A stretch of DNA of 64,000 nt from a virus (IMGVR_UViG_3300012347_000338:1-64000); one strand, 5' to 3'. Counted from the first letter of the stretch, positions 11,002 through 27,362 are shown. The notes: generated by a model not told the origin, from the sequence alone. Numbers and translations: made by a program.

Positions 11002-11507
11002 CGCACCAATCGCGACACCGCACGCTCCGTCATTGCGTCAATCGATTCCAAAATGCCGATGAGCTTGGTGATCTCTTCGCGGTGCTTGCGCTGCACCGGA
11101 CGGCGGCCATCGCCGTGGCAGTGTTTGCAAGCCTTGGCCGATAGCACGGGCGAGTTCTCTTGGAGCTCAAAGCCGCGGCCTTGGCAGTGCGGGCAGACTG
11201 GTGCGATGTGATGGGCAAGCGCGCGCTCAGCGATTGTGCGGATTGCCTGGCCATTGAGGCGCCAGTTCATCTTGGCGTCAATGCGACGCACGAGCGCTTC
11301 GACGGCCTTGTAGGCATCCTTGAGCGCCAGGCGTGACGTCGTGGTGTGCAAGTGCAGCAGCGCGCTGGCAATGGCTGGATTGCGCGCCTCGGCGACGCCG
11401 GCAGCCATCACATAGTCCAGGTCTGTGCGGTGGTCAAAGTCCAGCGACAGATCCGATGAGTTCATTGCGACACCTAGTCGCTCTAACGCAGACGGCCTTG
11501 AGCTCAT
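10998..11507 (-). CDS. putative zinc-finger antitermination protein Q-like
   Basis: CPHCQG...CKHCHG double CxxC zinc motif; position at end of early operon. Confidence 0.35.
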   Translation of the reverse strand: MSSRPSALERLGVAMNSSDLSLDFDHRTDLDYVMAAGVAEARNPAIASALLHLHTTTSRLALKDAYKAVEALVRRIDAKMNWRLNGQAIRTIAERALAHHIAPVCPHCQGRGFELQENSPVLSAKACKHCHGDGRRPVQRKHREEITKLIGILESIDAMTERAVSRLVR

Positions 11508-11857
11508 CGCACTTCCTTTACTTCGATTCCATGCACCACCTTCATGAGTCGGCGCTTGAGTTGGTACTCGCGAGTCTTCATGCCTTTGACGTCCTCGATG
11601 ATCTTGTTGCCGAGGTGGTCGAGGTACTCAAAGTCCGCGATGTATTTGATGACGCGCTGCTTCTTGCCATCCATCACCACCGACGGGATGATTTCAAAGG
11701 ACGGCTGCAGCTGCAGTTCACTGATGTGGCCCGCCTTCTCTAGCGTTTTGAGTTGCACGTAGCGCGCAGCCTCGCGCTTGCTGGCGAAGGTGATGCCGTC
11801 AACTTGAGTTTTTACTGCGCCGTACTTGCTACGGACGTTGCGAACCGGCAGCACCAT
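11504..11857 (-). CDS. DUF1064-family phage protein
   Basis: KYGAVKTQVDGITFASKREAARY...ELQLQ..FEI...GKKQR..KYIADFEY family signature. Confidence 0.7.
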   Translation of the reverse strand: MVLPVRNVRSKYGAVKTQVDGITFASKREAARYVQLKTLEKAGHISELQLQPSFEIIPSVVMDGKKQRVIKYIADFEYLDHLGNKIIEDVKGMKTREYQLKRRLMKVVHGIEVKEVR

Positions 11858-12135
11858 CAGGCTTCGTTCGCTGCCTGTGTCAGTGCAGTACTCGGCTGCA
11901 GGGTGACGACCTTGCGAGGCGGGACCATGACCGTCTCACCGGTATGCAGATTGCGAGCTCGCTTCTCGCCACGCTGGACGACCTTGATGATCCCCAGGCC
12001 AAACAGCGCAACGCTGTCGCCTTTGGAGACGGCCTTCTTGGTGACGGCAACAGCCGACGACAACACGGTGCGCACGGTGCCTGCGGATTCACCCGAGACA
12101 TACGCAACGCGCTTGATAAATTCTTGCTTGAGCAT
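11857..12135 (-). CDS. HU/IHF-family DNA-binding protein
   Basis: GDSVALFGLGIIKVVQRGEKRARNLHTGETVMVP arm motif. Confidence 0.85.
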   Translation of the reverse strand: MLKQEFIKRVAYVSGESAGTVRTVLSSAVAVTKKAVSKGDSVALFGLGIIKVVQRGEKRARNLHTGETVMVPPRKVVTLQPSTALTQAANEA

Positions 12136-12234
12136 TAAACGGTTCCAACAATTTGTTTGTACTGGAACCGTTTATAGCATCAAGCTATCGGTTTGCTCCG
12201 ATGATTAACTGCAATGAATTTTGTCCATTGCAGT

Positions 12235-12726
12235 TCAGGCGTAGCGAAGCACCGTGTCGACGTGTTCGCGCAGCTGGTCTTCTGTCATGGTCGACGACGT
12301 GAGGATCTTCTTCAGGATCACATTGATCACGTCGCTGTACAGGGTCTCAAACTCATCCTCGCTCATGTTCGCGAAGCTGATTGACTTGGCCTCTACCCTC
12401 ACCTCACCGCGGGCGTTGTACACCGCGTCAAAGCGACCGCTCATGATGATTAAGTCTTTGCGGAAGCGGTCGAAGTTCGGCTCAACCTGCACGCCGCGGT
12501 ACTCCTGCGGCTCAATGGTCTCGGTCCAGATGTCGAAGGCATACTTGGCTAGCGTGAAGAACTTCTGCAGGAACTTGTAGTTGCGGATCTGACGCACCTC
12601 AACGCGCACCATTGAGCCAGCCTTGATCTTGCGGATCATCTCGGCATCTTCATCGGTCGCTGGGGCGAAGCCGCCTGTCGGCAGGCGGACCATTAGAAGC
12701 TCAGCCACGGTACGGCTCCCACACAT
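12235..12726 (-). CDS. hypothetical phage protein (DUF1367-like)
   Basis: 163-aa ORF; weak resemblance to DUF1367. Confidence 0.4.
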   Translation of the reverse strand: MCGSRTVAELLMVRLPTGGFAPATDEDAEMIRKIKAGSMVRVEVRQIRNYKFLQKFFTLAKYAFDIWTETIEPQEYRGVQVEPNFDRFRKDLIIMSGRFDAVYNARGEVRVEAKSISFANMSEDEFETLYSDVINVILKKILTSSTMTEDQLREHVDTVLRYA

Positions 12727-13060
12727 TGACGCCGGCAGCCTTGGCGCGACTGGTCATGTCTGCGGTACCGGCGCCACCAGGAAAAGCCACGACGCCGTCG
12801 ACGACCATCTCGATCATCTTCTGGTTGCGCATAGGGCCGGCGGCCTTGCCGTGCTCGCCCCAGTTTGCCGGCACGCTCAGGCATGGGATGCAGCGCTGGA
12901 ATGCCCAGGCGGCAGCAAGCGTGTCAGCACCCTCTGCGCCGCCGTGGATGATCATGCCGATGTCGACCTTGTTGGCCAGCGCATCAAGTGCCTTGTACGC
13001 GGCACGCATGTCGAAGTAGTCGCGCCCTCCGCAGACGATGAAGTTCTTCGCCTCGGACAT
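12701..13060 (-). CDS. SLOG-family/DUF2493 protein
   Basis: VCGGRDY...IIHGGAEGADTLAA.WA...P..W..HGKAAGPMRN...VAFPGGAGT signature. Confidence 0.55.
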   Translation of the reverse strand: MSEAKNFIVCGGRDYFDMRAAYKALDALANKVDIGMIIHGGAEGADTLAAAWAFQRCIPCLSVPANWGEHGKAAGPMRNQKMIEMVVDGVVAFPGGAGTADMTSRAKAAGVNVWEPYRG

Positions 13061-13260
13061 CAGACCATTCCGAACAGGTCAATGCGGTCACGCAAGATTG
13101 ATGAGTACTCGCCCATGGCCACCATCTGGCGGCGCAAAAGGTACTGATCTTGGTGCGACAGCGTGTGGTAGATGGGCGTGCCGATGAAGTTGGTCAAAGC
13201 CTCGAGCTTGGTGTCGAGATCCTTCTTCTCGTCGATTACGCGTTTTTGATGTGGTTGCAT
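13060..13260 (-). CDS. hypothetical protein
   Basis: small coupled ORF. Confidence 0.3.
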   Translation of the reverse strand: MQPHQKRVIDEKKDLDTKLEALTNFIGTPIYHTLSHQDQYLLRRQMVAMGEYSSILRDRIDLFGMV

Positions 13261-13409
13261 TTGGGTACTCCTAGTTGAACAATTCCTACTCCGTCTCCCA
13301 GCACCCAGAGGGCGCGGTTGATTGCGGCTTGCGACACAGTCGCGCCGGCCTTGACCTGGTCAAGGATGTCGTGAGCCTCAAGCTCTTCCTGGTTGCAGTG
13401 GTCACGCAT
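13236..13409 (-). CDS. hypothetical protein
   Basis: internal ATG overlapping DnaC-like stop. Confidence 0.3.
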   Translation of the reverse strand: MRDHCNQEELEAHDILDQVKAGATVSQAAINRALWVLGDGVGIVQLGVPKCNHIKNA

Positions 13410-14256
13410 CGCGCATCTCCTTGCGGGCAGTTGTGCGGTACGAGCTCCAATCGAATGGCACCCAGCGGGCAACCTCAGTCAAGCGGTCAAACACCCGGTC
13501 GCCTACGGCCACACGGAAGTCGTCCTTGCCAAGGTTGGTCATCAGGATGGTCGGACGCACCTCGCGGTAGCGACGGTCCATCACGTCGAACAGAATCGAG
13601 CGCTCGCCATCGGTGCCGTACTGGACGCCGACCTCATCGATCACCAGAAGCGGGATCGCCTGCAGCTTGGTCAGCAGCTGCGACTCGGACATCTCACTGT
13701 CTCGGCGCCACGTGTCGCGCAGCTTGCGGATCAGATCCATCAGGGTGACGTACGCGCCGACATGCTTGGGCAGGATCTCTTGCAGGATCGCCGCGGCCAG
13801 GTGGCTCTTGCCGGTACCAGGGTTGCCAGACAGCACCAGCGACGCGCCTGTCTTCAGGTTGCGGTCAAACTCTTTCGCATAGGTGTAGCAGATGTCGCGG
13901 ACGTTGAACGCCTTGGTCCCCTGCTCTACCCGGTAGTTGTCGAAGGTGCGGCCGACAAAGCGCGGAGGGATCGCGGTGTGCTCGAGCAAGGCCTCAACCT
14001 GCAAGCGGCTGGCTTCTTGCTCAGCACGGATGCGCCTAGCCTCCAACTCAAACTCAGCGTCCTCAAGGCATGTTGGGCACTTGGACCAGACGTCGCGACT
14101 GAAGCCGCCGTAGTTGTGGCGCGTTCCAGTCGCCGTGTACTCGCCATGAGCCTCGCATGTGCGGATCTCGGTCGGCAATGCCGTGGCACCAATCGCACCG
14201 CCAGCCAGAGCCTTGGTGATGTTGCCCATCAGGTCAGCTGAAGGAGCCGTCATCAT
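13402..14256 (-). CDS. DnaC/IstB-like AAA+ replicative helicase loader
   Basis: Walker A GNPGTGKSHLA, Walker B LLVIDEVG; internal ATG 14256 preceded by GGGAGGG. Confidence 0.85.
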   Translation of the reverse strand: MMTAPSADLMGNITKALAGGAIGATALPTEIRTCEAHGEYTATGTRHNYGGFSRDVWSKCPTCLEDAEFELEARRIRAEQEASRLQVEALLEHTAIPPRFVGRTFDNYRVEQGTKAFNVRDICYTYAKEFDRNLKTGASLVLSGNPGTGKSHLAAAILQEILPKHVGAYVTLMDLIRKLRDTWRRDSEMSESQLLTKLQAIPLLVIDEVGVQYGTDGERSILFDVMDRRYREVRPTILMTNLGKDDFRVAVGDRVFDRLTEVARWVPFDWSSYRTTARKEMRDA

Positions 14257-14956
14257 TGATGCCCTCCCGGTAGTTGACCTGAGCGAAGCCAGCGTGCGAG
14301 CTCGGGCGTTTGGCGGATGAGCCGACCGCCTTGCTGTTGCGCACCCAGTTGCGCCAGGTTGCCTGCCAGTCCAGCTTGGCGCCGTCCTTGCCAGCCTTAG
14401 CAACCCAGAAGTCCTTGAACCGGTCTGCCACGTCCTGGATGTTCAGGTCTGGTCGCTCAGTGGTTGCCCAAGCAGCCCAGTCTTCTGGCAACACCCAGTC
14501 TTGCGCCAAGCGCGAAGCGCGGGGCTTACTAGCTTGTCCTGGTTCTTGGTTAGTGGTTCTTGGTTCTTGGTTAGGTGGCGCTTCGTCACCAACCTTGGGC
14601 GATTCGTTCACGGTACGAGCACGAGTCGTGCTCTTTTCCTTACGCTTCGCCTCCCTTTCGACAGCGATTCGTTTGTTCGTCTCGGCCTTTGAGTGGTACT
14701 CAGCGATCTCTTCCTTGATCCGGCTTTGCACGTAAACGCCGTCCTCAAGGGTGAAAAAGCGGGTCAAGACGAACTTGACGGCCTCGAGCTCCTCAGTGCT
14801 GGAGGCCCAAGTCCACTCGATTGCATCCTCAAGCGTGGGGAATCGCTCACGGTCGTAGCACGAGTCGATCAGAAGCGTGTACGCACCGTGCTGCAACATG
14901 GACAGCCGTCCAGTCTTCTTGGCGTAATCACCGATGTTCTTTTTGTAGTAGTGCAT
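14234..14956 (-). CDS. replication protein, YdaU/DUF1376 N-terminal domain
   Basis: MHYYKKNIGDYAKKTGRLSMLQHGAYTLLID matches DUF1376. Confidence 0.75.
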   Translation of the reverse strand: MHYYKKNIGDYAKKTGRLSMLQHGAYTLLIDSCYDRERFPTLEDAIEWTWASSTEELEAVKFVLTRFFTLEDGVYVQSRIKEEIAEYHSKAETNKRIAVEREAKRKEKSTTRARTVNESPKVGDEAPPNQEPRTTNQEPGQASKPRASRLAQDWVLPEDWAAWATTERPDLNIQDVADRFKDFWVAKAGKDGAKLDWQATWRNWVRNSKAVGSSAKRPSSHAGFAQVNYREGINDDGSFS

Positions 14957-15040
14957 CAGGCGCCAATCTCTTCAAGCGTCGGTTCCAAACCGCATGTCAT
15001 TGGAAATTTCACATCATCTTTCTTCCTCGGTGTCCGAGAA

Positions 15041-15124
15041 TAAAAAAAGCCTTAGTCGGGAATCTCATCAGCTTTCACTGACGTTGGCGGACTGGGTTGG
15101 TTCCAGCAGATTCCCGGCTAAGGC
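15041..15124 (-). terminator. candidate intrinsic terminator/attenuator inside leftward early operon
   Basis: 19-bp stem (1 mismatch) GCCTTAGCCGGGAATCT/AGATTCCCGACTAAGGC, about 45-nt loop, then UUUUUUUAUU on minus strand. Confidence 0.4.
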
Positions 15125-15218
15125 TTACCAACATCCCCGCCAAGGGATCTAACTTTCGGAGCGGATTGTAGCAACATTTTCTGCGCTCCCAACTTTTTGT
15201 TTGCTCCGACTGAAAAAT

Positions 15219-15545
15219 TTACGCGTGTTGTATGGCCGCAGCAGCCGGCGACGGTTGTTCCGTTTTCCGGAAATCTGCAGGCTCATCTTTTGCTGGCCGA
15301 ATCGGCCACAGGCATTCGTCAGCAATCGGCCCAGCCATCGTTCGGATGAAGTTGGTGCCGGCGAGATCACCCCAGATCAGCGGCGATCCAAGCGATTCGC
15401 ATAGCCAGACCTGCCTGGACTCGGTAGGCATCACGATCCCAATGTCAGCAGGGTCATAGGCTTTGAGCACCTCGACGATCCTCATCAGGTTCTCTGGGTT
15501 GGCCGCGCGTATGACAAACGCGAGGTCTCCGGGTTGGCAGTTCAT
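15219..15545 (-). CDS. first gene of leftward operon (cro position), paralog of 2574..2849
   Basis: divergent from repressor; MNCQPGDLAFVIR N-terminus paralogous. Confidence 0.5.
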   Translation of the reverse strand: MNCQPGDLAFVIRAANPENLMRIVEVLKAYDPADIGIVMPTESRQVWLCESLGSPLIWGDLAGTNFIRTMAGPIADECLWPIRPAKDEPADFRKTEQPSPAAAAIQHA

Positions 15546-15700
15546 GGGCTAATACCTTTCATCAAGTAGTGACAATTCACTTTAAGTGTTGCAACATTTT
15601 TGCTCGGTTGATTGTCGAAACAAACGATTGGCTTGTCAACGGATTGTTGACCGTGTATGTTGGTCTCTCGTGAACTTTTGTTTGCAACGGGAGACGATTC
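15546..15700. promoter_or_regulatory. divergent early promoter/operator region
   Basis: palindromes TGTTGCAACA and GTCAAC-N5-GTTGAC; TTGACC/TTGACA -35 boxes on both strands. Confidence 0.45.
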
Positions 15701-16198
15701 GTGAAGGTGAAAGATCAGATCAGGGCTAGGCGTGAGCAGCTTGGAATGACCATTGATGAGCTTGCCCGTCGTCTTGAGGTATCGGGCCAGGCGGTTCGTC
15801 ATTGGGAGAGTGGTCGCAGCTTCCCTGGCAAGTCCAAGGCAGGGGCGCTAGAGGCGGCACTGAGCATTACGCTCGACTGGACCGAGGGTGCTAGACCCGT
15901 TTCTAGCGGTAACGCGATGTCTGCCCTTGTGAACCGGTCAGACATCGACCTGTTGTTGTTGATCTGCCAGCTACCCGAGCAGGCTAAGGAGCTCATCGCA
16001 AACCTAGTACGTATGCATCTCACAGCCCTAGAGGGTGGTCGCAAGGCCTTCTCTGAGAAAGTCAGTCAAACGGGCGTGTCTTCGTTCACAGAGAAAAATG
16101 TTGCATCAGCAGCTGGAGAAGTAACGAATGCCAAACCAGACAGCAACTCAGCCAAGGGCTCCAACAAGCGTGCTGCGCCTCGTCGAAAAGCAGCCTGA
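15701..16198 (+). CDS. CI-like XRE-family HTH repressor
   Basis: GTG start after GGGAG; MTIDELARRLEVSGQAVRHWESG HTH_3 motif; divergent from early operon. Confidence 0.7.
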   Translation: MKVKDQIRARREQLGMTIDELARRLEVSGQAVRHWESGRSFPGKSKAGALEAALSITLDWTEGARPVSSGNAMSALVNRSDIDLLLLICQLPEQAKELIANLVRMHLTALEGGRKAFSEKVSQTGVSSFTEKNVASAAGEVTNAKPDSNSAKGSNKRAAPRRKAA

Positions 16199-16391
16199 CC
16201 CAACAATCGTTGAGCAACTTCGTGACCTGTTGCGAGACGCTGAGACCGGCAGGATTCGTGGCCTGCTCGCGTCAGCGCACTACGGCGGCAATCACTATGG
16301 GTACTACGGCGGCGGCACGATGTGCAGCAACCAGACCATCGGCCTAGCAGCGATTTACAATCTTGCAACAAAACTGTTGACAGACAACTGA
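16128..16391 (+). CDS. questionable ORF (Gly/Tyr-rich)
   Basis: overlaps repressor 3' end by 29-70 nt; mixed codon usage. Confidence 0.2.
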   Translation: MPNQTATQPRAPTSVLRLVEKQPDPTIVEQLRDLLRDAETGRIRGLLASAHYGGNHYGYYGGGTMCSNQTIGLAAIYNLATKLLTDN

Positions 16392-16404
16392 ATGTTGATA
16401 TACT
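16377..16404 (+). promoter_or_regulatory. near-consensus sigma70 promoter TTGACA-N16-TGaTATACT
   Basis: read directly; points into ORF-free region. Confidence 0.5.
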
Positions 16405-16559
16405 CGCTTCGCCACCTGGTACATGTGGTTCACTGATTGCTCGGTGTCTCCTGTTGAATGCGCTGGCATTCTCAATGTACCGACCAGCCGATTGGTGCCC
16501 GTAAGGCACCACTATCAAATCAGCGGCGGCGTGGATGGACGCGCTAGGCACGGTGCAGA

Positions 16560-18120
16560 AACATTCAATGCGGCGAGGGATTGATCTCCCGGCGGTCGCA
16601 CTGCGAAGGTGCTGATAGGAAAGTGGAGTGGGCTCTGTTGACGAACAACCCAACGCAAACGCTGGCAGTGTGCGGCAACCTGGAATCAAGCCCAGGCCGC
16701 TGATTTGATGGTGCGAGCGAGGTGCTGACTCGCAGGGCGTGGAACCCCCAGAAGCCTACTCCACGGTAGGCCATGCAATGAGAAGCCGGAGATCAGCGCC
16801 GGCCACCATCAACAAATTTCTCTCGCAGGTTCGCCTGTGACTTGTCGGCCCAAGAGACGGGGTGCCGCACAAGCTGGATTGTTAGTAATTTGCGACATGA
16901 GAACGCCTGGAGTCAGAAGTCCAGCAGAACGGCGTGACAACTCGGAGAGACGAGTACTTTCAAGTCAAGGGCTGAGCACATCATTGATGGAGCTACAGTA
17001 ACGGCCCTTGTCTTGATGGTGAATGCGCAGGCTGAGGCGACACACACAGTAGCGGGGCTCTGATAGGCGTGTAACACCGAAAGCTGGAGATCAGCGCCGG
17101 CCACCATCAACAAAAAGGCTGGATGACTTCATCCTTCAAGACGGCCTCTAAATGTCTAGAAGGGTCTCACTCGACAGTCGAGCGGTACTGGGCGGGCTGT
17201 GCAATTGAGCCACATCACAGAGTGCGAGGAGAACCGGCCAACAGGTCTCTGGCACCCCGGAAAGACGGGGACTTTCAAGTCTTTGCATACCGCGTGTGCA
17301 AAGACTTGATGGTCGTGAAGCAGCGGTGGGTCAGCGCCATCGCATGCGTTTGAAAATCAGCCTCTGCTTTATGAGAGTGCTTCACGACCAACAGACGACA
17401 TGGCCTAACCAGCCACCCTCTGGCATGCGGGGTCACGTATGCAAAGCGAGATGATCTGCTTGGCGTGGTGCCAAGTTGATGCCGGCGTAATCTCGTATGC
17501 TGCAAGACCTTAGTGCAGCACCTATACGCATGGAGATTGAGAACCGTCAGAGAGCGCGTCAGCAATCAATGGCAAACGTCATACAGTCTCCAGCCGTGTT
17601 GGTGAGTGGTAGTCGCTAGGCCCATAGCCTAGAAAGACGCCGATGAATATTGTTCTACCTCCGCTGTTCCGTCGGAGCCTGCGCTCAAAAATGAACGGAG
17701 CCACTGACACCCGAAACATCAGCGGGATACCCGGATGTGACCTGCACGGAGAGACGTGAGCGGAAACCCGCAAGGGCCGCTGGGACTGACGAGATTCAGC
17801 GGTCTGTGGAATTCAGACCACCAACACGCATGGAGATTGCAGTCCACGGTTGCGCCGTGACACGGATCACAGGGGTCGCTCCCTGGTCAGTCTCCAGCCG
17901 TGTTGGTTAAGCGCGATGACACTGTGCGTCCTTGCACGGAGGGTCGGCGTAGGGTTGGGGATTCCCGGCCGCCAACAACCTATTCATTGCGGCGACCTTT
18001 CGCCGAGCGTGGCACGACCTGTGGGCACAAGCCAGCACAGGGCTCGGTAAACAGCTTCTCATGCAATCGAAACTCGGGCCGCTTAGCATTTTTGCCGGGG
18101 ACGAATGAGAGGAACGTGCT
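16560..18120. repeat. tandem diverged repeat units of about 300 bp (two subfamilies)
   Basis: GCCGGAGATCAGCGCCGGCCACCATCAACAAA at 16785 and 17084 (299-bp spacing); ACGCATGGAGATTG at 17526 and 17826; GTCTCCAGCCGTGTTGGT at 17586 and 17890; ACTTTCAAGTC at 16956 and 17271. Confidence 0.6.
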
Positions 18121-18151
18121 AGAAAGCCCGGCATTTTTTGTCGGGCTTTCT
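18121..18151 (+). terminator. hairpin AGAAAGCCCG-loop-CGGGCTTTCT followed by T-rich tract
   Basis: 10-bp perfect stem, 11-nt loop; ACTTTCTGTTGTG downstream. Confidence 0.35.
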
Positions 18152-18159
18152 ACTTTCTG

Positions 18160-18187
18160 TTGTGCGCCCAACTTTTTGGTGCATAAT
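18160..18187 (+). promoter_or_regulatory. conserved phage promoter motif copy 1 (TTGTGC-N16-CATAAT)
   Basis: GCGCCCAACTTTTTGGTGCATAAT; near-identical copies at 21868 and 27592. Confidence 0.5.
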
Positions 18188-18214
18188 CGCCTCACTTAAA
18201 CACAGAGGCGGTTA

Positions 18215-18335
18215 TGGAAATTCATTGGGCTTGGTTGATTGTGGCGACGCAACTTGGTGTTGCCGTCGGCATCTTCCTTGTCGCGCTCATGCAGGCAAAT
18301 CGCGAGCGTCGCGATGAGTCAGAAAGGGGCCAATG
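18215..18335 (+). CDS. small membrane peptide (about 40 aa)
   Basis: ATG after AGAGGCGG; hydrophobic helix; below ORF-track cutoff. Confidence 0.3.
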
Positions 18336-18725
18336 AAGTGCACGAAGTGCGGACACGGTGACACCCAAGTCCTAGAAACACGCAAGATCCAAGGTGGCCA
18401 GGTAACACGGCGCCACCGAGCATGTGGTCAGTGCGGTCATACGTTCAACACGTACGAGATCGACGACACCCTCCTCAAGACGATCAAGAAGTACGCCCTC
18501 AATGAGGGCCGGGAGAAGGCGCTCACCAGGCGCAGCAACCTGCACGCTCGCAATGAGCAGATCTTGGCCATGCTCAAGAGTGGCGAGAAGCACTCTGTGG
18601 TGGCCAGCCAGTTTGGCCTCTCCGACAACATGATCTCGACGATTGCTCGCCGTGCAGGCGTGCCGTCGTATGCGCGTCAGCGCGGCTTGAAAGCGGAGGC
18701 GGCCAAGCCGAAGCACAAGAAATGA
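18333..18725 (+). CDS. Ogr/Delta-type zinc-finger protein fused to C-terminal HTH
   Basis: CTKCGH...RRHRACGQCGHTFNTYE matches Ogr/Delta CxxC-N-CxxC-F.TYE; C-terminal SQFGLSDNMISTIARRAG HTH. Confidence 0.55.
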   Translation: MKCTKCGHGDTQVLETRKIQGGQVTRRHRACGQCGHTFNTYEIDDTLLKTIKKYALNEGREKALTRRSNLHARNEQILAMLKSGEKHSVVASQFGLSDNMISTIARRAGVPSYARQRGLKAEAAKPKHKK

Positions 18726-19153
18726 AGTACCAGGTGCGCCAGGTTGACACACGGGACGCGGAGATTGCCGCGATCCTGGAGCGCCTGCAGCTGCAGTGCC
18801 TGCCAAACGACATCCCGCAGAAGACCGACAAGGGCTACTGGTGGCTCTGTTACACCGAGGCCAACATCCCAATCGGCTTCGCTGGCATGGTGCCTAGCAT
18901 CCGCTGGGAGCAGACCGGCTACCTATCCCGAGCAGGCGTACTCGAGGCGCACCAAGGCCGCGGGCTACAGAAGCGCCTGATCCGTGTGCGCATTCTGCGA
19001 GCCAAGCAGCTTGGCTGGCGCTACCTCCTCTCCGACACATCCGAGAACCCGGCATCGGCGAATTCGCTGATCAGCTGCGGCTTCAAGATGTACGAACCCA
19101 TGCGCCCGTACGGGCTCAAGACCAGCCTCTATTGGCGAAGAAAGCTCCCATGA
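18722..19153 (+). CDS. GNAT-family N-acetyltransferase
   Basis: motif A VLEAHQGRGLQKRLI. Confidence 0.7.
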   Translation: MKYQVRQVDTRDAEIAAILERLQLQCLPNDIPQKTDKGYWWLCYTEANIPIGFAGMVPSIRWEQTGYLSRAGVLEAHQGRGLQKRLIRVRILRAKQLGWRYLLSDTSENPASANSLISCGFKMYEPMRPYGLKTSLYWRRKLP

Positions 19154-19440
19154 AAATCAGCAAAAACATCGAGGCGCTCCTGCGTGGCTACGTCGTGTTC
19201 AACGTCAACGGCAAGCGCTTCTGGAACTACGAAGACGCCCGCGCTGAGCGCGTGCGAATCACCGACGCAAATCAGCCTGTTGAGTTCTCTGGCTGGCACG
19301 TGATCAAGGGTTGGCGCTGGTTCTACTACACCGCCTACATTGGCCCGTCGTTTGATGTGCACGTTGACTCAGAGGCGCATCCAGCACGCGCTCGCGCCTT
19401 GGCATCAACCCCAAACATTGTGGCGGTGGCTGAGGTATGA
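19150..19440 (+). CDS. hypothetical protein
   Basis: coupled ORF. Confidence 0.4.
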   Translation: MKISKNIEALLRGYVVFNVNGKRFWNYEDARAERVRITDANQPVEFSGWHVIKGWRWFYYTAYIGPSFDVHVDSEAHPARARALASTPNIVAVAEV

Positions 19441-19910
19441 GGGGCCTCGTTGACTTCGACGGCGAGAACCGCGCCGTGCGCAACTTTTTGATGTTCTACG
19501 GCGGTGGCCACGGCATCAACACCAAGAGCATGCGCTACACGATGACCATGTCCGGCTTCGATGGCGCCTGGCCAGATTGGGCCAATGACGACATGCATCT
19601 CACCAAGGCTGGCGCTCAGCTATGGCTGCGTCACTTGTTCGATTTAGAGAAGAAAACGAACACGTCCGAAAAACATGTATACGAATCGGACAAAAACGTA
19701 CACGTTCCGACCACGACTCGTGCTCTCAACGAGATCGAGTCAGCGCTTATCCGCAGCACCGGCCTCAAGCCAGAAAAGTTTGTTCGGGTGACCGCGTTCA
19801 ATGACAAGCCCGTCTCAATCCGCGACATGCCAGAAAGCTTCCGCGAGGCTGTTCGTAAGGGGTTAGCTAACGGCTCACTGCAGATCATGGGGTCAACCAA
19901 TGCCTCTTGA
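19437..19910 (+). CDS. hypothetical protein
   Basis: 157-aa ORF. Confidence 0.5.
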   Translation: MRGLVDFDGENRAVRNFLMFYGGGHGINTKSMRYTMTMSGFDGAWPDWANDDMHLTKAGAQLWLRHLFDLEKKTNTSEKHVYESDKNVHVPTTTRALNEIESALIRSTGLKPEKFVRVTAFNDKPVSIRDMPESFREAVRKGLANGSLQIMGSTNAS

Positions 19911-20178
19911 GCCGCACCCAACAGACCCAGACAAGATGGTCTACAAGCCACACCCTGCGGCGCTTGCTTTGCGCGAAGAGTTCAACAAAGACCTTCGGAT
20001 CGCCGAGCTCACGCGTGAGCGCGATGACGCGTTGCGCCTGCTGGCCATGGCCCACCTCAATCTGCGTCAGCACCTCGAGTACGGATTCAACCCAAAGACC
20101 GCCCGGAGCACGCTCATCAGCGTCGGGCAAATCGCACCGCTATTGCATGAGGCAATCAGCAAAGAAAGCACCACATGA
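19900..20178 (+). CDS. hypothetical protein
   Basis: coupled ORF. Confidence 0.4.
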   Translation: MPLEPHPTDPDKMVYKPHPAALALREEFNKDLRIAELTRERDDALRLLAMAHLNLRQHLEYGFNPKTARSTLISVGQIAPLLHEAISKESTT

Positions 20179-20310
20179 TTTCACCAATTGGCATTCACCT
20201 TGTAATCACAATCTCACAGGACACGATTGATGCGTGCCTGAAAATCGGCATTCTCATCTGCATCTGCCTCTTTGCAATCAAGGGTATGCGCATCATCAAG
20301 GAGCACGGCG

Positions 20311-20535
20311 ATGCGTGACCTGATGATCCTATTTGGCTCTGGCTTTGCTGTGTTTACGATCTACGTGATCTCCAAGGCAATTGACTTGGTCGGCCAGTGT
20401 CGCCATCACTGGGGCGCATGGGAAGCAAGCGAGACCGAGTGCGCGTATGTGCAGCGCCGCAAATGCACCAAGTGCGGATACGTGGAGACGGAGCAGTTCC
20501 GCAAGCTCAAAGAGAAGCGCGATGACGACAACTGA
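20311..20535 (+). CDS. small membrane/zinc-ribbon protein
   Basis: TM helix then CxxC...CxxC. Confidence 0.35.
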   Translation: MRDLMILFGSGFAVFTIYVISKAIDLVGQCRHHWGAWEASETECAYVQRRKCTKCGYVETEQFRKLKEKRDDDN

Positions 20536-20806
20536 AAAGCTTCAGGTGCTCAACGTGTTCCTGATTCTGATGATCCTGCTGCTGGTCGGCAAGCTGTACT
20601 CAGCCTACTGGCATTCAGAACAAGAGGCACGAGCGATACAGGAGCCGCCTGATCTGATGGAGCAGGCCTTGGTCAACATCTCCATGCGCAAGATGCAGCT
20701 GCAGCTGCGTGAGCTCCTGGTGTACAGCGAGCCCAATGAGATGCACGAATTGCTGCGCGAGTACATGCGCCTAAGAGACGAGCAAGACAAGAAAGAAGCT
20801 CAATGA
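20522..20806 (+). CDS. small membrane-anchored coiled-coil protein
   Basis: internal ATG; N-terminal TM helix. Confidence 0.4.
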   Translation: MTTTEKLQVLNVFLILMILLLVGKLYSAYWHSEQEARAIQEPPDLMEQALVNISMRKMQLQLRELLVYSEPNEMHELLREYMRLRDEQDKKEAQ

Positions 20807-20994
20807 GAACAACCAACCGACAAGCCACCGTGCACGTTGATGCGCAACACAAGTCCCATGAACAGCTGCGCAAAGAGCTCTGGATCGGCGTAGCTACGGC
20901 TGTCGCCCGCGCCGAAGGCGCCCGTAGCAGAAGCGCTCCAGGCGGATGGGCCGACGAGGTACTGAAAGACTTTGATAAGAAATTTCCAAAATGA
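20803..20994 (+). CDS. hypothetical protein
   Basis: coupled. Confidence 0.35.
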   Translation: MRTTNRQATVHVDAQHKSHEQLRKELWIGVATAVARAEGARSRSAPGGWADEVLKDFDKKFPK

Positions 20995-21176
20995 CACCAG
21001 AACTACAACTAACCGACAAGGAGCTCAAGGCTGTAGCCCAAAAGCTCTGTCAGATCCGCGGAATTGATCCCTACCACATGCTCGGCGCCACCGTTGCAAC
21101 AGACTTTGCAATGCTCGAGGTCAAGCGCTTCATTGAGATTGTCCAGGCCATTGACCACGTAAAGGAGATCCCATGA
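20991..21176 (+). CDS. hypothetical protein
   Basis: coupled. Confidence 0.35.
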   Translation: MTPELQLTDKELKAVAQKLCQIRGIDPYHMLGATVATDFAMLEVKRFIEIVQAIDHVKEIP

Positions 21177-21433
21177 CCGAACTTGAAAAAATGGTCAAGG
21201 CGACCGGCATCAACCACGCGCTCGAGTACGGCGAGAGCATCCCCGATGAAGTACTCACAGCGTTTGCAGAGTCGGTCATTGACTGGGTTGCGCGCCAGCA
21301 CTTCGAGCAGTGCAAAGAAGTCCGCCCTATTCAGCAATGGATCTTGGCCATCAAGCCACTTCTGCATCTTGAACTCACTTCATCCGTAACAACCAAGGAA
21401 ATCAAGGAGCACTCATGGGCCAGAACCGAGTAA
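21173..21433 (+). CDS. hypothetical protein
   Basis: coupled. Confidence 0.4.
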   Translation: MTELEKMVKATGINHALEYGESIPDEVLTAFAESVIDWVARQHFEQCKEVRPIQQWILAIKPLLHLELTSSVTTKEIKEHSWARTE

Positions 21434-21702
21434 TCAACGGCGAGATGACAGCCATGACGGCCGACCGAGAGACGGCGCCAGAAGCCGCTTCTGGTGGCTG
21501 GCGGCAGCATGTCATCACGCAGGTGGTTGAGATGCACAGGAGTGGCTGGCTGGGCGCTTGGGATGCGTTTGTGGCCGCCCTGCTACGCAAGCCGCGGCTC
21601 TCGGTTGCTCAGCCGATGACGCTGTCGGCGTGGGTGAAGGCGCCCAATGGGCACAAGACACAACTCTCCATCACCCAGACGCAACTCGAGACCCACCAAT
21701 GA
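21415..21702 (+). CDS. hypothetical protein
   Basis: coupled. Confidence 0.35.
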   Translation: MGQNRVINGEMTAMTADRETAPEAASGGWRQHVITQVVEMHRSGWLGAWDAFVAALLRKPRLSVAQPMTLSAWVKAPNGHKTQLSITQTQLETHQ

Positions 21703-21860
21703 AAAGACGCAGCGACGGCACGGCATTCGACTGGCGAAAGAAGCCACCAGTGATACCAGAGTTCGTGCCAGCGGAAGATCCGCCGCCCGAGGCCAGCGAG
21801 CGCATTGACGTTCTGTTGGCACGCAAGCCAAAAGACCCCAAGAAACAGTCGGACTCTTAA
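21699..21860 (+). CDS. hypothetical protein
   Basis: internal ATG 21699. Confidence 0.3.
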   Translation: MKRRSDGTAFDWRKKPPVIPEFVPAEDPPPEASERIDVLLARKPKDPKKQSDS

Positions 21861-21867
21861 ATTTTTG

Positions 21868-21895
21868 TTGGCGGACCAACTTTTTGTTGCATAAT
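21868..21895 (+). promoter_or_regulatory. conserved phage promoter motif copy 2 (TTGGCG-N16-CATAAT)
   Basis: GCGGACCAACTTTTTGTTGCATAAT. Confidence 0.5.
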
Positions 21896-21934
21896 ACAAC
21901 CGTTAGTTTTTAACGCTCGTAACAGGAGAATCCA

Positions 21935-23113
21935 ATGACAGAAGCAACCACCGCGGCCACCGCGGATTCATTCGTGGCACCAGCCACAGCACTCGTGCCA
22001 GTTGAGCAGCGCGCCGCGCTTGCACTTGGCAGCAGCAAGACAGAAGAGGACTTGAAGGCCCTGGCTGTCAAGCACTCAAACATCACCAAGGTCGTCGACA
22101 AGGCCGGCCGCGAGCAGGCGCACCGCGCCGCCATGGAGGTCCAGACAGCGCGCACGACCATCACGAAGGTTGCCAAGGCCGCCCGTGACGACGCCACCAA
22201 GTTCTCCAAGGCTGTCATCGCCGAAGAGAACCGCCTGCTACTCATCATCGACGCGGAAGAAGGGCGTCTGTTCGCCCTGCGCGATGCATGGGACGCAGAG
22301 CAAGAGCGTATCAAGGCCGAGAAGGCTGCAGCCGAGAAGGCTCGCATTGAGGCCATACAGACCTCCATTGCCAGCATCCGATCAATCCCAGCCACCGTGG
22401 CCAGCGCCAGCGCCGAGTCCGTCATGGCCGCCGGCAAGGCGTTGTACCAGTTAGAGATCACCGAGGAGCAGTACCAAGAGTTCGTAGAAGCCGCCCAAGC
22501 CGAGAAGGCCAAAGCGCTTGACGCACTGGGTGACATCCTCGATGCAGCCAAGTCTCGCGAGGCAGAAGCCGCACGCATTGAAGCCCAGCGCATTGAGAAC
22601 GAGCGCGTTGCTGCTGAGAACGCCCGTATCGCCGCAGATCTTGCGGCGCAACAAGCCGCAATCGCCGCACAAGCCGAAGCCCAGCGCATCGCCGCTCAGG
22701 CTGAAGCCCAGCGCGCAATTGACGAGGCCAACGCCAAGTCACGCCAGGAGGCTGCTGAGCGCGCCGAGATGCTGAAGAAGCAGGAAGACGCATTCGCCGC
22801 CGAGAAGGCTGCCGCCGAAGCGATCCTCAAAGAACAGCAAGACAAACTCAACGCAGAGATTGCCGTGATCGCCAAAGCCAATGCAGAGCGCGCAGCTGCT
22901 GAAGCCGCCGCCAAGGCCGCCAAAGAAGTCGAGGAAGCCAACGCCCGCCTCAAGGCGCAAGAGGAGGCGAAGGCTCTCCGTTTGGCCGAAGTGCGCGAGC
23001 GCTCTGACGCCATTGTGGATGCCATCTGCACCCAGTTCCAGGTTGAGCACAGCACCGCTGTTGAATTCCTGCTCGAGGCTGCCGACTACCTGCGTGATGA
23101 GGTGACTGCATGA
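21935..23113 (+). CDS. Ala/Glu-rich coiled-coil protein upstream of recT
   Basis: 392 aa, long heptad-like AEAQRIAAQAEAQRAI repeats. Confidence 0.55.
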   Translation: MTEATTAATADSFVAPATALVPVEQRAALALGSSKTEEDLKALAVKHSNITKVVDKAGREQAHRAAMEVQTARTTITKVAKAARDDATKFSKAVIAEENRLLLIIDAEEGRLFALRDAWDAEQERIKAEKAAAEKARIEAIQTSIASIRSIPATVASASAESVMAAGKALYQLEITEEQYQEFVEAAQAEKAKALDALGDILDAAKSREAEAARIEAQRIENERVAAENARIAADLAAQQAAIAAQAEAQRIAAQAEAQRAIDEANAKSRQEAAERAEMLKKQEDAFAAEKAAAEAILKEQQDKLNAEIAVIAKANAERAAAEAAAKAAKEVEEANARLKAQEEAKALRLAEVRERSDAIVDAICTQFQVEHSTAVEFLLEAADYLRDEVTA

Positions 23114-23388
23114 AGTTGTACAACCCTTTCAAGCTTCACATCGTGCAGTTCGCAGACGGTAGCTATGCCGTGCGCCAAATGCGCCGCAGGGCAATCATTG
23201 ACTTCCACTGGATCTACCTGACTGAAAATGCCAAAAGCTGGGAACGCTATGTGTACTCCTACTGCAAACACAAAACTTATGAGGACGCGTTCATGGCTCT
23301 GGCAAAGCGCTCATCGCTAGACGATGAGGATGCGCGGCAAGCCAAGCAATGGGCGCTTGGACGGAAAGTAACAAAGGTAATCGCATGA
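23110..23388 (+). CDS. hypothetical protein
   Basis: coupled. Confidence 0.4.
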   Translation: MKLYNPFKLHIVQFADGSYAVRQMRRRAIIDFHWIYLTENAKSWERYVYSYCKHKTYEDAFMALAKRSSLDDEDARQAKQWALGRKVTKVIA

Positions 23389-24302
23389 GCAAAATCGCAA
23401 TCGTAGAGAACCAGATTCTCTCCCTCGAGGTCGCCTTCAATGACGTCCTGTCTGACAAGGCAATCAAGTTCAAGGCCGAGGCTGAGTTCGCTGTTCAGGT
23501 CTTGATGAACAACGACTACTCGCTGGGCATCGCGGTCAAGAACCCTGACTCAGTGCGCAACGCGGTGATGAACCTGGCCGCCATCGGCCTGAGCCTGAAC
23601 CCGGCCAAGAAGCAGGCGTACCTGGTGCCGCGCAAGAACGCGATCTGCCTGGACATCAGCTACATGGGCCTGGTTGAACTGGCCATTGCCAGCGGCTCCG
23701 TGCGCATGGTCAAGGCTGAGCTCGTCAAGGCCACCGACACGTTTGAGATGAACGGCTTTGACCGTGAGCCAACTCACAAGTTCAACCCGTTTGCCAAAGA
23801 CCGCGGCGAGATTGTCGGCGTGTACTGCGTGGCCAAGACCAATCACGGCGACTGGGTCACGGACACGATGACCATTGATGAGGTCTACGCGATCCGCGAC
23901 CGCTCCGAGTCATACAAGGCCGGCAAGTCCACACCTTGGAAGACCGACCCCGGCGAGATGATCAAGAAAACCATCGTCAAGCGCGCCAGCAAGATGTGGC
24001 CGAAGACCGACCGTCTGGACGAGGCCATCCATCACCTGAACACCGACGGCGGCGAGGGTGTTGTGGAGATCGTCGGCGGCCGTGACACAGGCGTTGCAGC
24101 TTTTGACGTCGACCATTGGCTGGACGCTGTGCGCGCGGCCAACACAGACGAAGAGTTCATGACCCAGTACAAGGCAGCCGGCGCCGCGGCGCTCGCAGCC
24201 AAGGCTGGCCAGCAGCACGCCTACTTCAAGCAGCAGGCTGTGGACATCCGCACCCAATTGCACGCCCGTTTAAACCCAGAAGCCCAAGAGGAACAACAAT
24301 GA
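23385..24302 (+). CDS. recT: RecT-family single-strand annealing protein
   Basis: RecT-like conserved blocks (LNPAKKQAYLVPRKN, VKRASKMWP). Confidence 0.8.
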   Translation: MSKIAIVENQILSLEVAFNDVLSDKAIKFKAEAEFAVQVLMNNDYSLGIAVKNPDSVRNAVMNLAAIGLSLNPAKKQAYLVPRKNAICLDISYMGLVELAIASGSVRMVKAELVKATDTFEMNGFDREPTHKFNPFAKDRGEIVGVYCVAKTNHGDWVTDTMTIDEVYAIRDRSESYKAGKSTPWKTDPGEMIKKTIVKRASKMWPKTDRLDEAIHHLNTDGGEGVVEIVGGRDTGVAAFDVDHWLDAVRAANTDEEFMTQYKAAGAAALAAKAGQQHAYFKQQAVDIRTQLHARLNPEAQEEQQ

Positions 24303-25039
24303 TCTTTATCGACTGCGAACAAGGCACGCCTGAGTGGCACCAGGCCCGCGCTGGCGTCATCACCGCCAGCACCTACTCCGACGCGCTGTCTGTGCTCAAG
24401 CGCAAGTCTGGCGACAAGGATGTCGGCGACTTCACCGATGCATCCGACACGCTGGCCATTAACACGGCCATGGAGCGCATTTCAGGCGAGCCCTATGGCG
24501 ACACCTTCCAGACCTACGCAATGAAGCGTGGAAGCGAGCAGGAGGCCTTTGCGCGCATGCGTTACGAGGCCAACTACAGCACCATCGTGGACGAGTGCGG
24601 CATCGTGCTCACCGACGACCGCCTGTTCGGCTACTCCACCGATGGCTTCGTCGGGTTGGACGGAATGATCGAAGTGAAGACTCCAATCAACAGCCTGAAG
24701 ATCATGAAGATGATCCAGTCTGGCAACGTCGAAGAGTACATCCACCAGATTCAAGGTGGCCTCTGGATCACCGGCCGCCAGTGGTGCGACTTCATCATGT
24801 ACGTGCCGCCGCTCAAAAGCAAAGGCAACGACCTGTACGTCAAGCGCATCTTCCGTGACGAGGATTTCATTCACGAGCTCGAGACTGGTCTGCTGCGCTT
24901 CAACGAGCGCGTTGAGCACTACGTCAAGGTGCTGAGCACTCCGTACGTCTCTGTGCCTGTTGCCGCCCCCGTTGCCACTCAGGCGGAGGTCGCTGCTCCA
25001 GCGCCAGCGCTGTCCAAGAAAGCTTCGGTTTTTGCATGA
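24299..25039 (+). CDS. YqaJ-like viral recombinase exonuclease
   Basis: GTPEWHQARAGVITAS; PD-(D/E)xK-like; ATGA-coupled to recT. Confidence 0.75.
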   Translation: MIFIDCEQGTPEWHQARAGVITASTYSDALSVLKRKSGDKDVGDFTDASDTLAINTAMERISGEPYGDTFQTYAMKRGSEQEAFARMRYEANYSTIVDECGIVLTDDRLFGYSTDGFVGLDGMIEVKTPINSLKIMKMIQSGNVEEYIHQIQGGLWITGRQWCDFIMYVPPLKSKGNDLYVKRIFRDEDFIHELETGLLRFNERVEHYVKVLSTPYVSVPVAAPVATQAEVAAPAPALSKKASVFA

Positions 25040-25227
25040 AGCACTTGATCACAATCTGGGTCTTCACGGCTGCTCTCTATTTTGTGTGGAAGTCACTCTC
25101 GGCTGACGCAAAAAACTCGGCGAAGGAATTCGCCGGTCAACATGCCCCGTTCATTCTGGCGGGCATCTTTCTCGGCCTCGGCGCTCTCGTCGCGGTCTTC
25201 TATCTCGGCTCTACAAAACTCCTGTGA
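25036..25227 (+). CDS. two-TM small membrane protein
   Basis: two hydrophobic helices. Confidence 0.45.
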   Translation: MKHLITIWVFTAALYFVWKSLSADAKNSAKEFAGQHAPFILAGIFLGLGALVAVFYLGSTKLL

Positions 25228-25234
25228 GGAACCT

Positions 25235-26047
25235 ATGAAACGCATTATTTCCATCTTTGCGCTCGCGGCAATCTGCCTGCTGAACGCATGCTCTCAAATT
25301 GACACCGGCAACATCGGCGTTGAATCAACCCTTGGTCAGGTCAAGAAAGAGACCATGCCGCCAGGCGTGTACTTCACGCTGTTTAAGCGCGTGACCGAAG
25401 TGTCGGCCAAAGAGCTTCGCCTGTCCTTTGACGACATGAAGCCCCAGACCAGCGACAAGATCACGCTCGCTGACTTGGACGTGGACCTGTACATCCAAAT
25501 CGACCCAGGCAAAGCCGCGGACATCATGACTCGCTGGCCTGGTGACGTGACCCACGTGAGTGGCGAAGACGGCAACCGCATCGGCATGAACTACGTGCAG
25601 CGCCAAGCTCGCGAAAACATCTACAACACGATCACCAAGTACGGCTCGGCCACGGTGCACACCGAGCGCACGGCCATCGCTGCGGACATCGTCAAGAACC
25701 TGCAAGCGGATCTCGATGAATCTGCCGGCAAAGGCTGGTTCTTCGTGCGCTCAGCCAACGTGCGCAACTTGGTGACCGACCCGGCGCTCGAGAAGGCAAT
25801 CATGGAAGCAGCCAACCGCCAGTTCCAGATCAACGCCAAGCAGAAGGAAGTCGAGCTCGCACGCGCTGAAGCCGAGCGCCAACGCGTCGAAGCCCAGGGC
25901 CTTGCCGACGCTATCCGCATCAAAGCTCAAGCCGTATCCAGCCAAGGTGGCCAGCAGTTCGTCGACCTCGAGGCGATCAAAAAGTGGGACGGCAAGCTTC
26001 CGCAGACCATGTCCGGTAACGCTACCCCATTCATCCACGTCAAATAA
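25235..26047 (+). CDS. SPFH/band-7 (prohibitin-like) lipoprotein
   Basis: signal peptide with lipobox LLNAC; SPFH core; internal ATG after GAGGAA. Confidence 0.7.
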   Translation: MKRIISIFALAAICLLNACSQIDTGNIGVESTLGQVKKETMPPGVYFTLFKRVTEVSAKELRLSFDDMKPQTSDKITLADLDVDLYIQIDPGKAADIMTRWPGDVTHVSGEDGNRIGMNYVQRQARENIYNTITKYGSATVHTERTAIAADIVKNLQADLDESAGKGWFFVRSANVRNLVTDPALEKAIMEAANRQFQINAKQKEVELARAEAERQRVEAQGLADAIRIKAQAVSSQGGQQFVDLEAIKKWDGKLPQTMSGNATPFIHVK

Positions 26048-26079
26048 AGTTTGGCCGAAAGGCCAACAGAAAGTTTCCC

Positions 26080-26385: not shown

Positions 26386-26398
26386 GAAAGGACAGCCA

Positions 26399-27358: not shown

Positions 27359-27362
27359 CCCT

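Follow-up and report, generated by a model that had tools for sequence, protein, structure and literature searches.

A recurrent promoter-like cassette with a 13-bp palindrome in the genome of a temperate phage

The stretch IMGVR_UViG_3300012347_000338:1-64000, a viral DNA of 64,000 nucleotides (nt) and in the following called the window, comprises most of the genome of a temperate phage with a G+C content of about 57%. Three near-identical 28-bp motifs, P1, P2 and P3, stand on its plus strand at the head of three gene modules. A first-pass annotation had read them as co-regulated promoters with a factor-binding site in the spacer and a leaderless third gene, a reading that is largely supported in outline by the present analysis, with its particulars corrected. 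Here we present the cassette to which the three motifs belong, its further copies and its conservation in related phages, together with the candidate regulators. P1 to P3 look like sigma70-type promoters, and we consider it somewhat probable that they are fused to operators of a dimeric phage protein, most likely of the Xre family, which would co-repress many transcription units, and that the gene at P3 is leaderless.

Promoter-like cassettes in the window

The cassette consists of a TTG, a spacer of 16-17 nt containing the palindrome CAAC-N5-GTTG (13 bp), and a hexamer of the TAnnnT type. The features of the region and the further cassettes of the window are as follows; aa stands for amino acids and ORF for open reading frame.

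10190-15545, minus strand: leftward replication operon (DUF1376, DnaC-like and HU-like proteins).
15165-15202, minus strand: P_rep, TTGGGA-N16-TACAAT (15192 to 15165) with an upstream AAAC-AAAAA-GTTG element; heads the DUF1376 and DnaC-like replication genes.
15611-15661, both strands: switch region with P_L (minus; TTGACA 15639 to 15634, N17, GACAAT 15616 to 15611) and P_HTH (plus; TTGTCA 15633-15638, N17, TATGTT 15656-15661).
15701-16198, plus strand: gene of an Xre-family helix-turn-helix (HTH) protein, 165 aa (Pfam HTH_3, 2.7e-11); proposed ligand of the palindrome.
16364-16404, plus strand: Pnc cassette, with a perfect distal palindrome CAAC-AAAACT-GTTG, TTGACA 16377-16382, putative operator CAAC-TGAAT-GTTG 16385-16397 and TATACT 16399-16404.
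18120-18152, plus strand: intrinsic terminator directly upstream of P1 (14-bp stem, -23.7 kcal/mol), closing the upstream ORF-less unit.
18150-18187, plus strand: P1 cassette (motif TTGTGCGCCCAACTTTTTGGTGCATAAT at 18160-18187), with an imperfect distal palindrome CTAC-TTTCT-GTTG 18150-18162, TTGTGC 18160-18165, putative operator CAAC-TTTTT-GGTG 18169-18181 and CATAAT 18182-18187; heads a 40-aa membrane peptide, an NrdR-like Zn-ribbon/HTH gene, GNAT and further genes.
21858-21895, plus strand: P2 cassette (motif TTGGCGGACCAACTTTTTGTTGCATAAT at 21868-21895), with a T-rich distal element, TTGGCG 21868-21873, perfect putative operator CAAC-TTTTT-GTTG 21877-21889 and CATAAT 21890-21895; heads a 392-aa protein, RecT, YqaJ exonuclease, SPFH protein and RNA ligase.
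27582-27628, plus strand: P3 cassette (motif TTGGCGCACCAACTTTTTGTAGCATAAT at 27592-27619) and predicted leaderless start, with a distal TAAC-TTTTA-GTTG 27582-27594, TTGGCG 27592-27597, putative operator CAAC-TTTTT-GTAG 27601-27613, CATAAT 27614-27619 and ATG 27626-27628; heads a 68-aa gene, SSB, RdgC and dNMP kinase.
51111-51152, minus strand: pair of perfect palindromes 14 bp apart (51126-51138 and 51140-51152), upstream of TGGTAAAAT, an extended -10 (51119 to 51111).
56535-56562, minus strand: virion-region cassette, TTGGAG 56562 to 56557, N16 with CAAC-AAATT-GTTG 56554 to 56542, TACAAT 56540 to 56535; upstream of a 514-aa gene (54906-56450).

Positions, counts and conservation are given here as read directly from the DNA. 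All three 28-bp motifs described by the first-pass annotation were found, and they differ among themselves at just 2-5 of 28 positions. The 20-mer CCAACTTTTTGNNGCATAAT has three exact plus-strand matches (18168, 21876 and 27600) against an expected count of 0.04, a number reached in 0 of 100 dinucleotide shuffles, and allowing up to three mismatches delivers no extra match in the window. P1, P2 and P3 are intergenic, have the same orientation as the genes downstream and fit the pattern TTGnnn-N16-CATAAT, as had been proposed; a sigma70 consensus scan independently lists P2 and P3 as TTGGCG-N16-CATAAT. Their -35-like hexamers are TTGTGC, TTGGCG and TTGGCG at a distance of 16 nt; this TTG is at the same time part of the right half-site of the distal palindrome, and the last three positions of the hexamer are not conserved.

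The motifs had been described as three copies heading one rightward operon. They do head modules, but the set is larger: the window holds at least seven predicted cassettes on both strands (P1, P2, P3, Pnc, P_L, P_rep and 56562 to 56535), which include the replication operon, the non-coding RNA region and the virion-gene region. In P1, P2, P3, Pnc, P_L and the 56562 promoter the palindrome occupies -25 to -13 and abuts the -10. Pnc, TTGACA-N16-TATACT, matches 11 of the 12 sigma70 consensus positions and reads into a 1.7-kb ORF-less region. P_L and P_HTH stand back to back and have in common the perfect palindrome GTCAAC-GGATT-GTTGAC (15635-15651, 6-bp arms), which covers both -35 boxes and is the best palindrome of the window. 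The pair at 51111-51152 has a geometry relative to its -10 that is unlike that of the other cassettes. There is indeed a sequence at 15180-15207 (CCAACTTTTTG at 15189) that had been taken for a degenerate copy lacking a -10, but it is the upstream part of the leftward promoter TTGGGA-N16-TACAAT, that is P_rep, read on the wrong strand. The contents of the modules were named correctly as far as GNAT, RecT, YqaJ exonuclease, SSB, RdgC and dNMP kinase are concerned, but not in the case of Ogr, the 18333 product being an NrdR-type zinc ribbon, nor in that of HNH, as a domain search found no HNH domain in the 28892-29320 product.

Exact CAAC-N5-GTTG occurs 12 times in the window, with 1.66 occurrences expected. 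When one mismatch is allowed, 21 of 63 palindromes are intergenic, an approximately threefold enrichment as intergenic DNA makes up 11.5% of the window. In half of 28 distinct cassettes a second palindrome (at most one mismatch) lies 19-20 bp upstream, where its GTTG provides the TTG of the -35.

The motifs could also be taken for terminator-promoter junctions, in which a GTTGG-N4-CCAAC mini-hairpin with its T-run ends the upstream module, and a consensus scan does list GTTGGCGGACCAAC followed by TTTTTG and AGTTGGCGCACCAACT followed by TTTTG (P2 and P3) as terminator-like. This is extremely unlikely: the mini-hairpins reach a stability of only -1.3 to -7.9 kcal/mol compared to -23.7 kcal/mol for the true terminator at 18120-18152, they are lost in P3 of the related contig L001 and in P2-P3 of L026, L028 and L029, and the region contains 21 terminator-like matches versus 20.0 in shuffles. 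A sigma54 reading (TGGC...TTGCA) was rejected, the GG-to-GC spacing being off by about 7 nt as judged by eye.

Two further observations concern promoter-like sequences. Between the -10 of P1 and the ATG at 18214 (18188-18213, plus strand) a CGCCTC pairs, by eye, with the Shine-Dalgarno region GAGGCG, and in L026 and L032 the pairing is kept with altered bases (CACCTC/GAGGTG). The 5' arm falls within the discriminator (-6 to -1), so that only transcripts reading through from upstream would contain this arm. In the left block a second promoter-like class occurs at two intergenic places (2515-2560 and 4562-4610, plus strand), with TTGC(C)AAC-N5-GTTT, 6-7 nt and (A/C)AATAATATGTTT, in which CAAC overlaps the -35.

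Conservation in related phages

Some 10 contigs of related phages and a Polynucleobacter prophage (L044) make up the comparison set. The exact motif is carried by two true relatives among the IMG/VR contigs, L001 (about 87% DNA identity to the window) and L002 (70-84%), and scanning one genome of each GTDB species for the exact motif delivered chance matches only, in low-GC genomes (Crocosphaera, Acholeplasmataceae). A protein-anchored search with the gene downstream of P2 added L026/27, L028/29, L030 and L032 (about 54% amino-acid identity). In the 200 nt upstream of the orthologues of this gene, chosen by gene position only, CAAC-N5-GTTG followed by a TAnnnT-type hexamer is found in every member of the clade; examples are TTTGCGCGTCAACATTTTGTTGGCATAAT, TTGACGCGCCAACAAAATGTTGCATAAT and TTGAGTGTCCAACTTTTTGTTGTACACT. 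The same arrangement occurs upstream of the P1 and P3 orthologues, in the prophage L044 and in L045, a relative with 64% G+C. P1 orthologues precede the same membrane-peptide gene in L002, L026, L030 and L032, and in L044 the P1-equivalent cassette lies directly upstream of the Zn-ribbon gene. Orthologues of Pnc are present in L002, L026, L030 and L044, which also keep the arrangement of the switch region, and in L044 the P_rep orthologue shows two perfect CAAC-N5-GTTG sites in tandem, with TAGAAT after them.

Over 22 cassette instances the half-sites carry 1.6-2.0 bits of information and A-11, A-9 and T-7 of the hexamer 2.0 bits, compared to 0.6-1.4 bits for the central N5 (TTTTT, ATTTT, ACTTT, AAACT, AAAAT, CTTTT, TGAAT, TAAAA, AAGAT). 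In the orthologues A-11 and T-7 are invariant though the hexamer as such varies (CATAAT, TACACT, GATAAT, TAGAAT, TATACT, TACAAT). A TTG is retained 16-17 bp upstream of the hexamer in most instances, and a 1-nt insertion between GTTG and the -10 is accompanied by a shift of the TTG, so that the distance between -35 and -10 stays at 16-17 nt, as required of a functional sigma70 promoter. P1 and P3 have imperfect right half-sites, GGTG and GTAG, which also occur in the close relatives L002 and L001; in deeper relatives the sites are perfect.

The 16-nt spacer, reported before as near-invariant, is so inside this genome, but not across relatives, where only the CAAC and GTTG half-sites are kept and the central five nucleotides vary. 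The conserved unit is thus a 13-bp A/T-centred palindrome abutting the -10, not a T-rich spacer. The related claim, that the spacer is constrained beyond the need of sigma70 and a bound factor thereby indicated, agrees with the retention of the half-sites in orthologues. It was the comparison of genomes that located the real constraint, an example of how the identity of repeats within one genome can mislead about the functional bases.

The spacer could still be a by-product of duplication or gene conversion, if plain strong host-type promoters had been copied within the genome and bound no ligand. The copies differ at so few positions, and the central T-run is common within the genome and different between genomes, as concerted evolution would give. 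We regard this as highly unlikely, since the half-sites are kept in orthologous promoters of phages whose neighbouring proteins are about 50% identical, while N5, the 3' half of the -35 and the flanks change, and since the palindrome is not confined to this register (15635-15651; 51126/51140) and recurs further upstream as a second copy.

Cassettes are concentrated in the clade, with a density of 15.4 per 100 kb in its members (188,550 bases), 0.11 per 100 kb in other phage DNA (871 kb, from distant phages reached via relatives of a 345-aa structural protein) and 0 per 100 kb in distant relatives and isolates (159 kb, including BcepIL02 and Gerry).

The proposal of a leaderless start for the gene at 27626-27832 held up as a prediction. 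In the window, L001/L031, L030 and L044, 6-7 nt separate the -10 from the ATG. In the window itself 6 nt lie between the last base of CATAAT (27619) and the first of the ATG (27626), which places the A at the canonical, predicted +1. An in-frame TAG (27611-27613) and the lack of a start codon or Shine-Dalgarno sequence in between leave no alternative start upstream, and the N-terminal residues of the gene product are conserved from ATG 27626 on. The arrangement reads CATAAT-7-ATG in L001/L031 and GATAAT-7-ATG in L030 and in L044, with L029, which has a short leader with a Shine-Dalgarno sequence, as the exception, giving four of five lineages. A leaderless mRNA at P3 is a reasonable expectation, and the gene would be a conserved example of a predicted leaderless phage gene.

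Candidate regulators and proposed mechanism

The Xre protein encoded at 15701-16198 is the most likely candidate for the ligand of the palindrome, as judged from its sequence family and gene position. It has PDB matches to 434 repressor and dh434 and resembles the DNA-binding domain of 434 repressor. It has at least 134 homologues, of which 120 were aligned (45-100% identical overall); in the HTH region Q30, R33, W35, E36, R39 and S40 are invariant in 120 of 120, matching the invariant half-sites of the operator, and the C-terminal half is variable. Within the 165 aa no S24 peptidase/LexA-like domain was detected in Pfam, where only HTH families matched, and a tblastn search of phage isolates with the Xre HTH protein found nothing. 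The gene adjoins the divergent promoter pair with its palindrome and is syntenic in L002, L026, L030, L032, L044 and L045.

The Xre protein and most of the 120 aligned homologues end in a basic-Ala-Ala tail (...RRKAA), though the preceding approximately 40 residues are variable, and the window also encodes a 67-aa protein with a ClpX-type C4 zinc finger (7613-7816). Together these hint at control of the regulator by ClpXP-type proteolysis and not by RecA-mediated cleavage. The 3' end of the Xre gene is overlapped by 71 nt, in another frame, by an 87-aa ORF (16128-16391, plus strand) without family match, which is 47-68% identical in relatives and whose last codons contain the -35 of Pnc.

An Xre/CI-like protein had already been named as a possible regulator and stays a reasonable one. 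The other protein named then, the product of 18333-18725, is not Ogr/Delta-like, and its HTH varies between relatives in which the palindrome is unchanged. The Ogr/Delta identity is ruled out by matches to Zn_ribbon_NrdR in Pfam (1.7e-15) and to NrdR structures in PDB, with none to Ogr/Delta.

The same anatomy of promoter and palindrome could serve another ligand: the NrdR-like Zn-ribbon/HTH protein made from P1, the winged-helix HTH_39 protein (6246-6497), the HU-like protein (11857-12135) or a host factor. These three candidate proteins are encoded in the window, and the N-terminal zinc ribbon, which is a DNA-binding domain in NrdR, is conserved in the clade. The T-rich sites of this genome also resemble, by eye, the IHF core CAA-N4-TTG. 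We nevertheless consider another ligand unlikely. The C-terminal HTH of the Zn-ribbon protein is strongly divergent in L026, L030 and L032, where the operator is unchanged; the sites of L030 and Pnc do not fit the IHF core, for which reason the reading as IHF sites was rejected by eye; and a divergent promoter pair with a common perfect palindrome is found at the Xre gene only.

With the Xre protein as ligand, the regulation may be pictured as follows, promoter activity, ligand and direction of regulation being predictions from comparative evidence. A phage-encoded dimer would bind CAAC-N5-GTTG at -25 to -13 and occlude RNA polymerase, and the weaker second palindrome 19-20 bp upstream, over the -35, would be a bound region as well. 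Binding would shut off together the replication operon, the non-coding RNA unit, the three rightward modules and at least one unit of the virion region, either in the lysogen or as a temporal shut-off. At P1 and P3, the deviations of the right half-site (GGTG and GTAG) are consistent with tuned or graded affinities. Transcription from P3 would begin at the A of ATG 27626 and give a leaderless mRNA.

The direction of regulation could be the opposite, if the promoters depended on an activator in the manner of the late promoters of phage P1 and the palindrome recruited a phage activator that replaces recognition of the -35 and turns the modules on. The gap of 0-1 nt between palindrome and -10 in nearly all instances would suit this, as would the poorly conserved 3' half of the -35 hexamer and the tandem site 51126/51140, one palindrome of which lies near -42, a classic activator position (positions determined by hand). 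We rate activation as quite unlikely. The TTG at 16-17 bp is kept in most instances, and Pnc, with its near-consensus TTGACA/TATACT, requires no activator and yet carries the same palindrome at the same register, which argues that the site represses rather than replaces the -35. The palindrome of the switch region covers both -35 boxes in a different register, as would fit repression, and the genes behind the cassettes are not late genes alone but include those of replication, early-type genes and that of the regulator itself.

Several points weigh against repression by the Xre protein as set out above. Immunity repressors normally diversify, so that a DNA-binding domain without variation across a large family is unusual for one, and the protein may be a conserved timing regulator instead. 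Strict abutment of palindrome and -10 would also suit an activator. The TTG of the -35 is confounded with the GTTG of the distal half-site. The window codes for further DNA-binding proteins (NrdR-like, HTH_39 and HU-like), and a host factor has to be considered too. Finally, many sites in the relatives were found by patterns requiring CAAC, so that the invariance of the half-sites is partly a matter of ascertainment; as these patterns bias the counts, the gene-anchored orthologues of P1-P3 are the unbiased evidence.

A broader claim, which we consider doubtful, is that one invariant pair of Xre protein and operator gates essentially every non-late unit in a large uncultured family of temperate phages of approximately 80 kb in freshwater Burkholderiales. 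If true, the gated units would comprise replication, recombination, some genes of the virion region and also the structured, strongly conserved non-coding RNA, which is at least 1.4 kb in length. With neither the DNA-binding domain nor the operator diversified, the family would then either share one immunity specificity, or the protein would be no immunity repressor but a conserved timing or activating factor that acts from the promoter spacer.

The phage, its structured RNA region and known systems

The region 16392-18119 (plus strand), between Pnc and the terminator at 18120-18152, extends over 1.7 kb without convincing ORF, and a gene-free gap of 0.7-2.1 kb is found at the same place in all relatives. 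Its blocks are the most conserved DNA of the window relative to L044, with 92-97% identity compared to 64-90% for genes. Blocks 16514-16716, 17100-17279 and 17644-17703 match a contiguous segment of about 440 nt in L044 (10737-11175), the block order being rearranged. A repeat of 31-34 nt (...GGAGATCAGCGCCGGCCACCATCAACAAA) is located at about 16783 and about 17081, and GCCACCATCAAC is a repeated junction sequence of the region. The hairpin at 17116-17147 (plus strand) has the form N4-UGGAUGACUUCAUCC-UUCAAGAC-N4', followed by UAAAUGUC..GAAGGGU; in its outer helix 3 of 10 pairs show double changes, 98% of cells are paired, and the covariation score was reached by 0 of 500 shuffles. The hairpin motif also occurs in L047, L048, L049, L051, L052, L056, L057 and L059, within or just after tRNA arrays of otherwise unrelated phage contigs. 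A 17-mer from one conserved block has exact matches in viral contigs, and a 34-mer from another block has no exact match there. In Rfam, the window matches no family at gathering thresholds, the ORF-less region has no match at E<=1, and the corresponding part of L044 gives only a tRNA, in which the ORF-less region of the prophage ends. The region looks like an undescribed large structured RNA, and this conserved, putatively Pnc-driven RNA without Rfam family is probably the more novel object of this part of the genome.

The long rightward block after the Xre gene encodes the NrdR-like Zn-ribbon/HTH protein, GNAT, RecT, YqaJ exonuclease, SPFH protein, RNA ligase, SSB, RdgC and dNMP kinase. Further to the right, both on the minus strand, are the following genes.

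33891-35189, minus strand: integrase.
35640-47426, minus strand: 3,928-aa polyvalent protein with SLT transglycosylase, InPase, ART-PolyVal and GP88 domains.

The 3,928-aa protein is probably a polyvalent, DarB-like, injected virion protein as in Bcep22-like phages. Between the integrase and this giant gene (35190-35640) lie several copies of GGTATCAC / AGTATCAC and of GGTACCAC, likely arm-type sites of the integrase in an attP region. On the other side of the switch region, the leader of approximately 200 nt between P_rep and the DUF1376 gene, within which 15043-15144 (minus strand) lies, is 81% identical to the Polynucleobacter prophage, and sequence resembling it (...CCCTTGGCGGGG...) is found after the orthologous promoters of L030 and L032; the leader may represent a regulatory RNA or part of an origin.

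A megablast search of 15000-28000 against 50,697 phage records found nothing, that is, no close isolate. The nearest cultured relatives are Bcep22-like phages of Burkholderia and Ralstonia, with about 45-50% identity over half of the 392-aa early protein. L044 is a syntenic prophage of Polynucleobacter sp. UK-Kesae-W10, a cultured freshwater strain of the Burkholderiales (GCA_018881575.1; JACVQB010000001.1, about 1,096,090-1,116,590); it has the same cassettes and shows that the phage family lysogenises. Many homologues of the Xre regulator are found on metagenomic contigs of 77-86 kb, which suggests a genome size of about 80 kb for the family, so that the 64-kb window is probably incomplete. 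The phage family is without cultured isolate, but one lysogen, strain UK-Kesae-W10, is in culture, and at least seven predicted promoters, one 13-bp operator and one candidate regulator make up a testable regulatory map.

The closest parallel in anatomy is the switch of phages 434 and lambda. In common are an HTH_3/Xre regulator, here similar to the DNA-binding domain of 434 repressor, dyad operators with A/T-rich and probably uncontacted centres that overlap the -35 or the spacer, and a regulator gene at a divergent promoter pair sharing operators. The operator of 434 has 14 bp, ACAA-N6-TTGT, whereas the present site is 13 bp long and its half-sites 4 bp. It is carried here by seven or more dispersed promoters, not by PL and PR alone; a S24/LexA-like domain was not detected in the regulator; and DNA-binding domain and operator are invariant across a large family and not diversified into immunity types.

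In phage P1, the operators of the C1 repressor are asymmetric 17-bp sites, and C1 is not known to be of the Xre type; homology to P1 regulators was neither sought nor found here. C1 acts at operators of many separate promoters in a large temperate genome with dozens of units (PMC8198154, PMC10695390), and one repressor with operators dispersed over many promoters is likewise proposed here. The late promoters of the same phage have a conserved short inverted repeat before the -10, which binds the phage factor Lpa and replaces the -35 (PMC10695390). An inverted repeat adjoining the -10 is shared with the present cassettes, but these retain a -35-like TTG at 16-17 nt, and Pnc is near-consensus with TTGACA, which sets them apart from the Lpa type; they are also not confined to late genes, and no Lpa homologue was identified.

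A looser likeness exists to the stoperators of Cluster A mycobacteriophages, sites of L5 gp71-type repressors that occur in many intergenic copies oriented with transcription (PMC9283540, PMC6550527), in that one repressor site is present in many copies across the genome. Stoperators are asymmetric, 13-14 bp long and monomer-bound, and mostly block elongation away from promoters, whereas the sites described here are palindromic and lie in the promoter spacer.

Bcep22-like podophages (Lessievirus; Ralstonia phages Gerry, Claudette and others) have in common with this phage a giant polyvalent/DarB-like virion protein, a cI-like regulator next to a tRNA, and SSB and DnaC-like genes, but the CAAC-N5-GTTG cassette occurs in none of their sampled 18-kb regions. 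Taken together, this is a familiar kind of system, here in an uncharacterised phage family.

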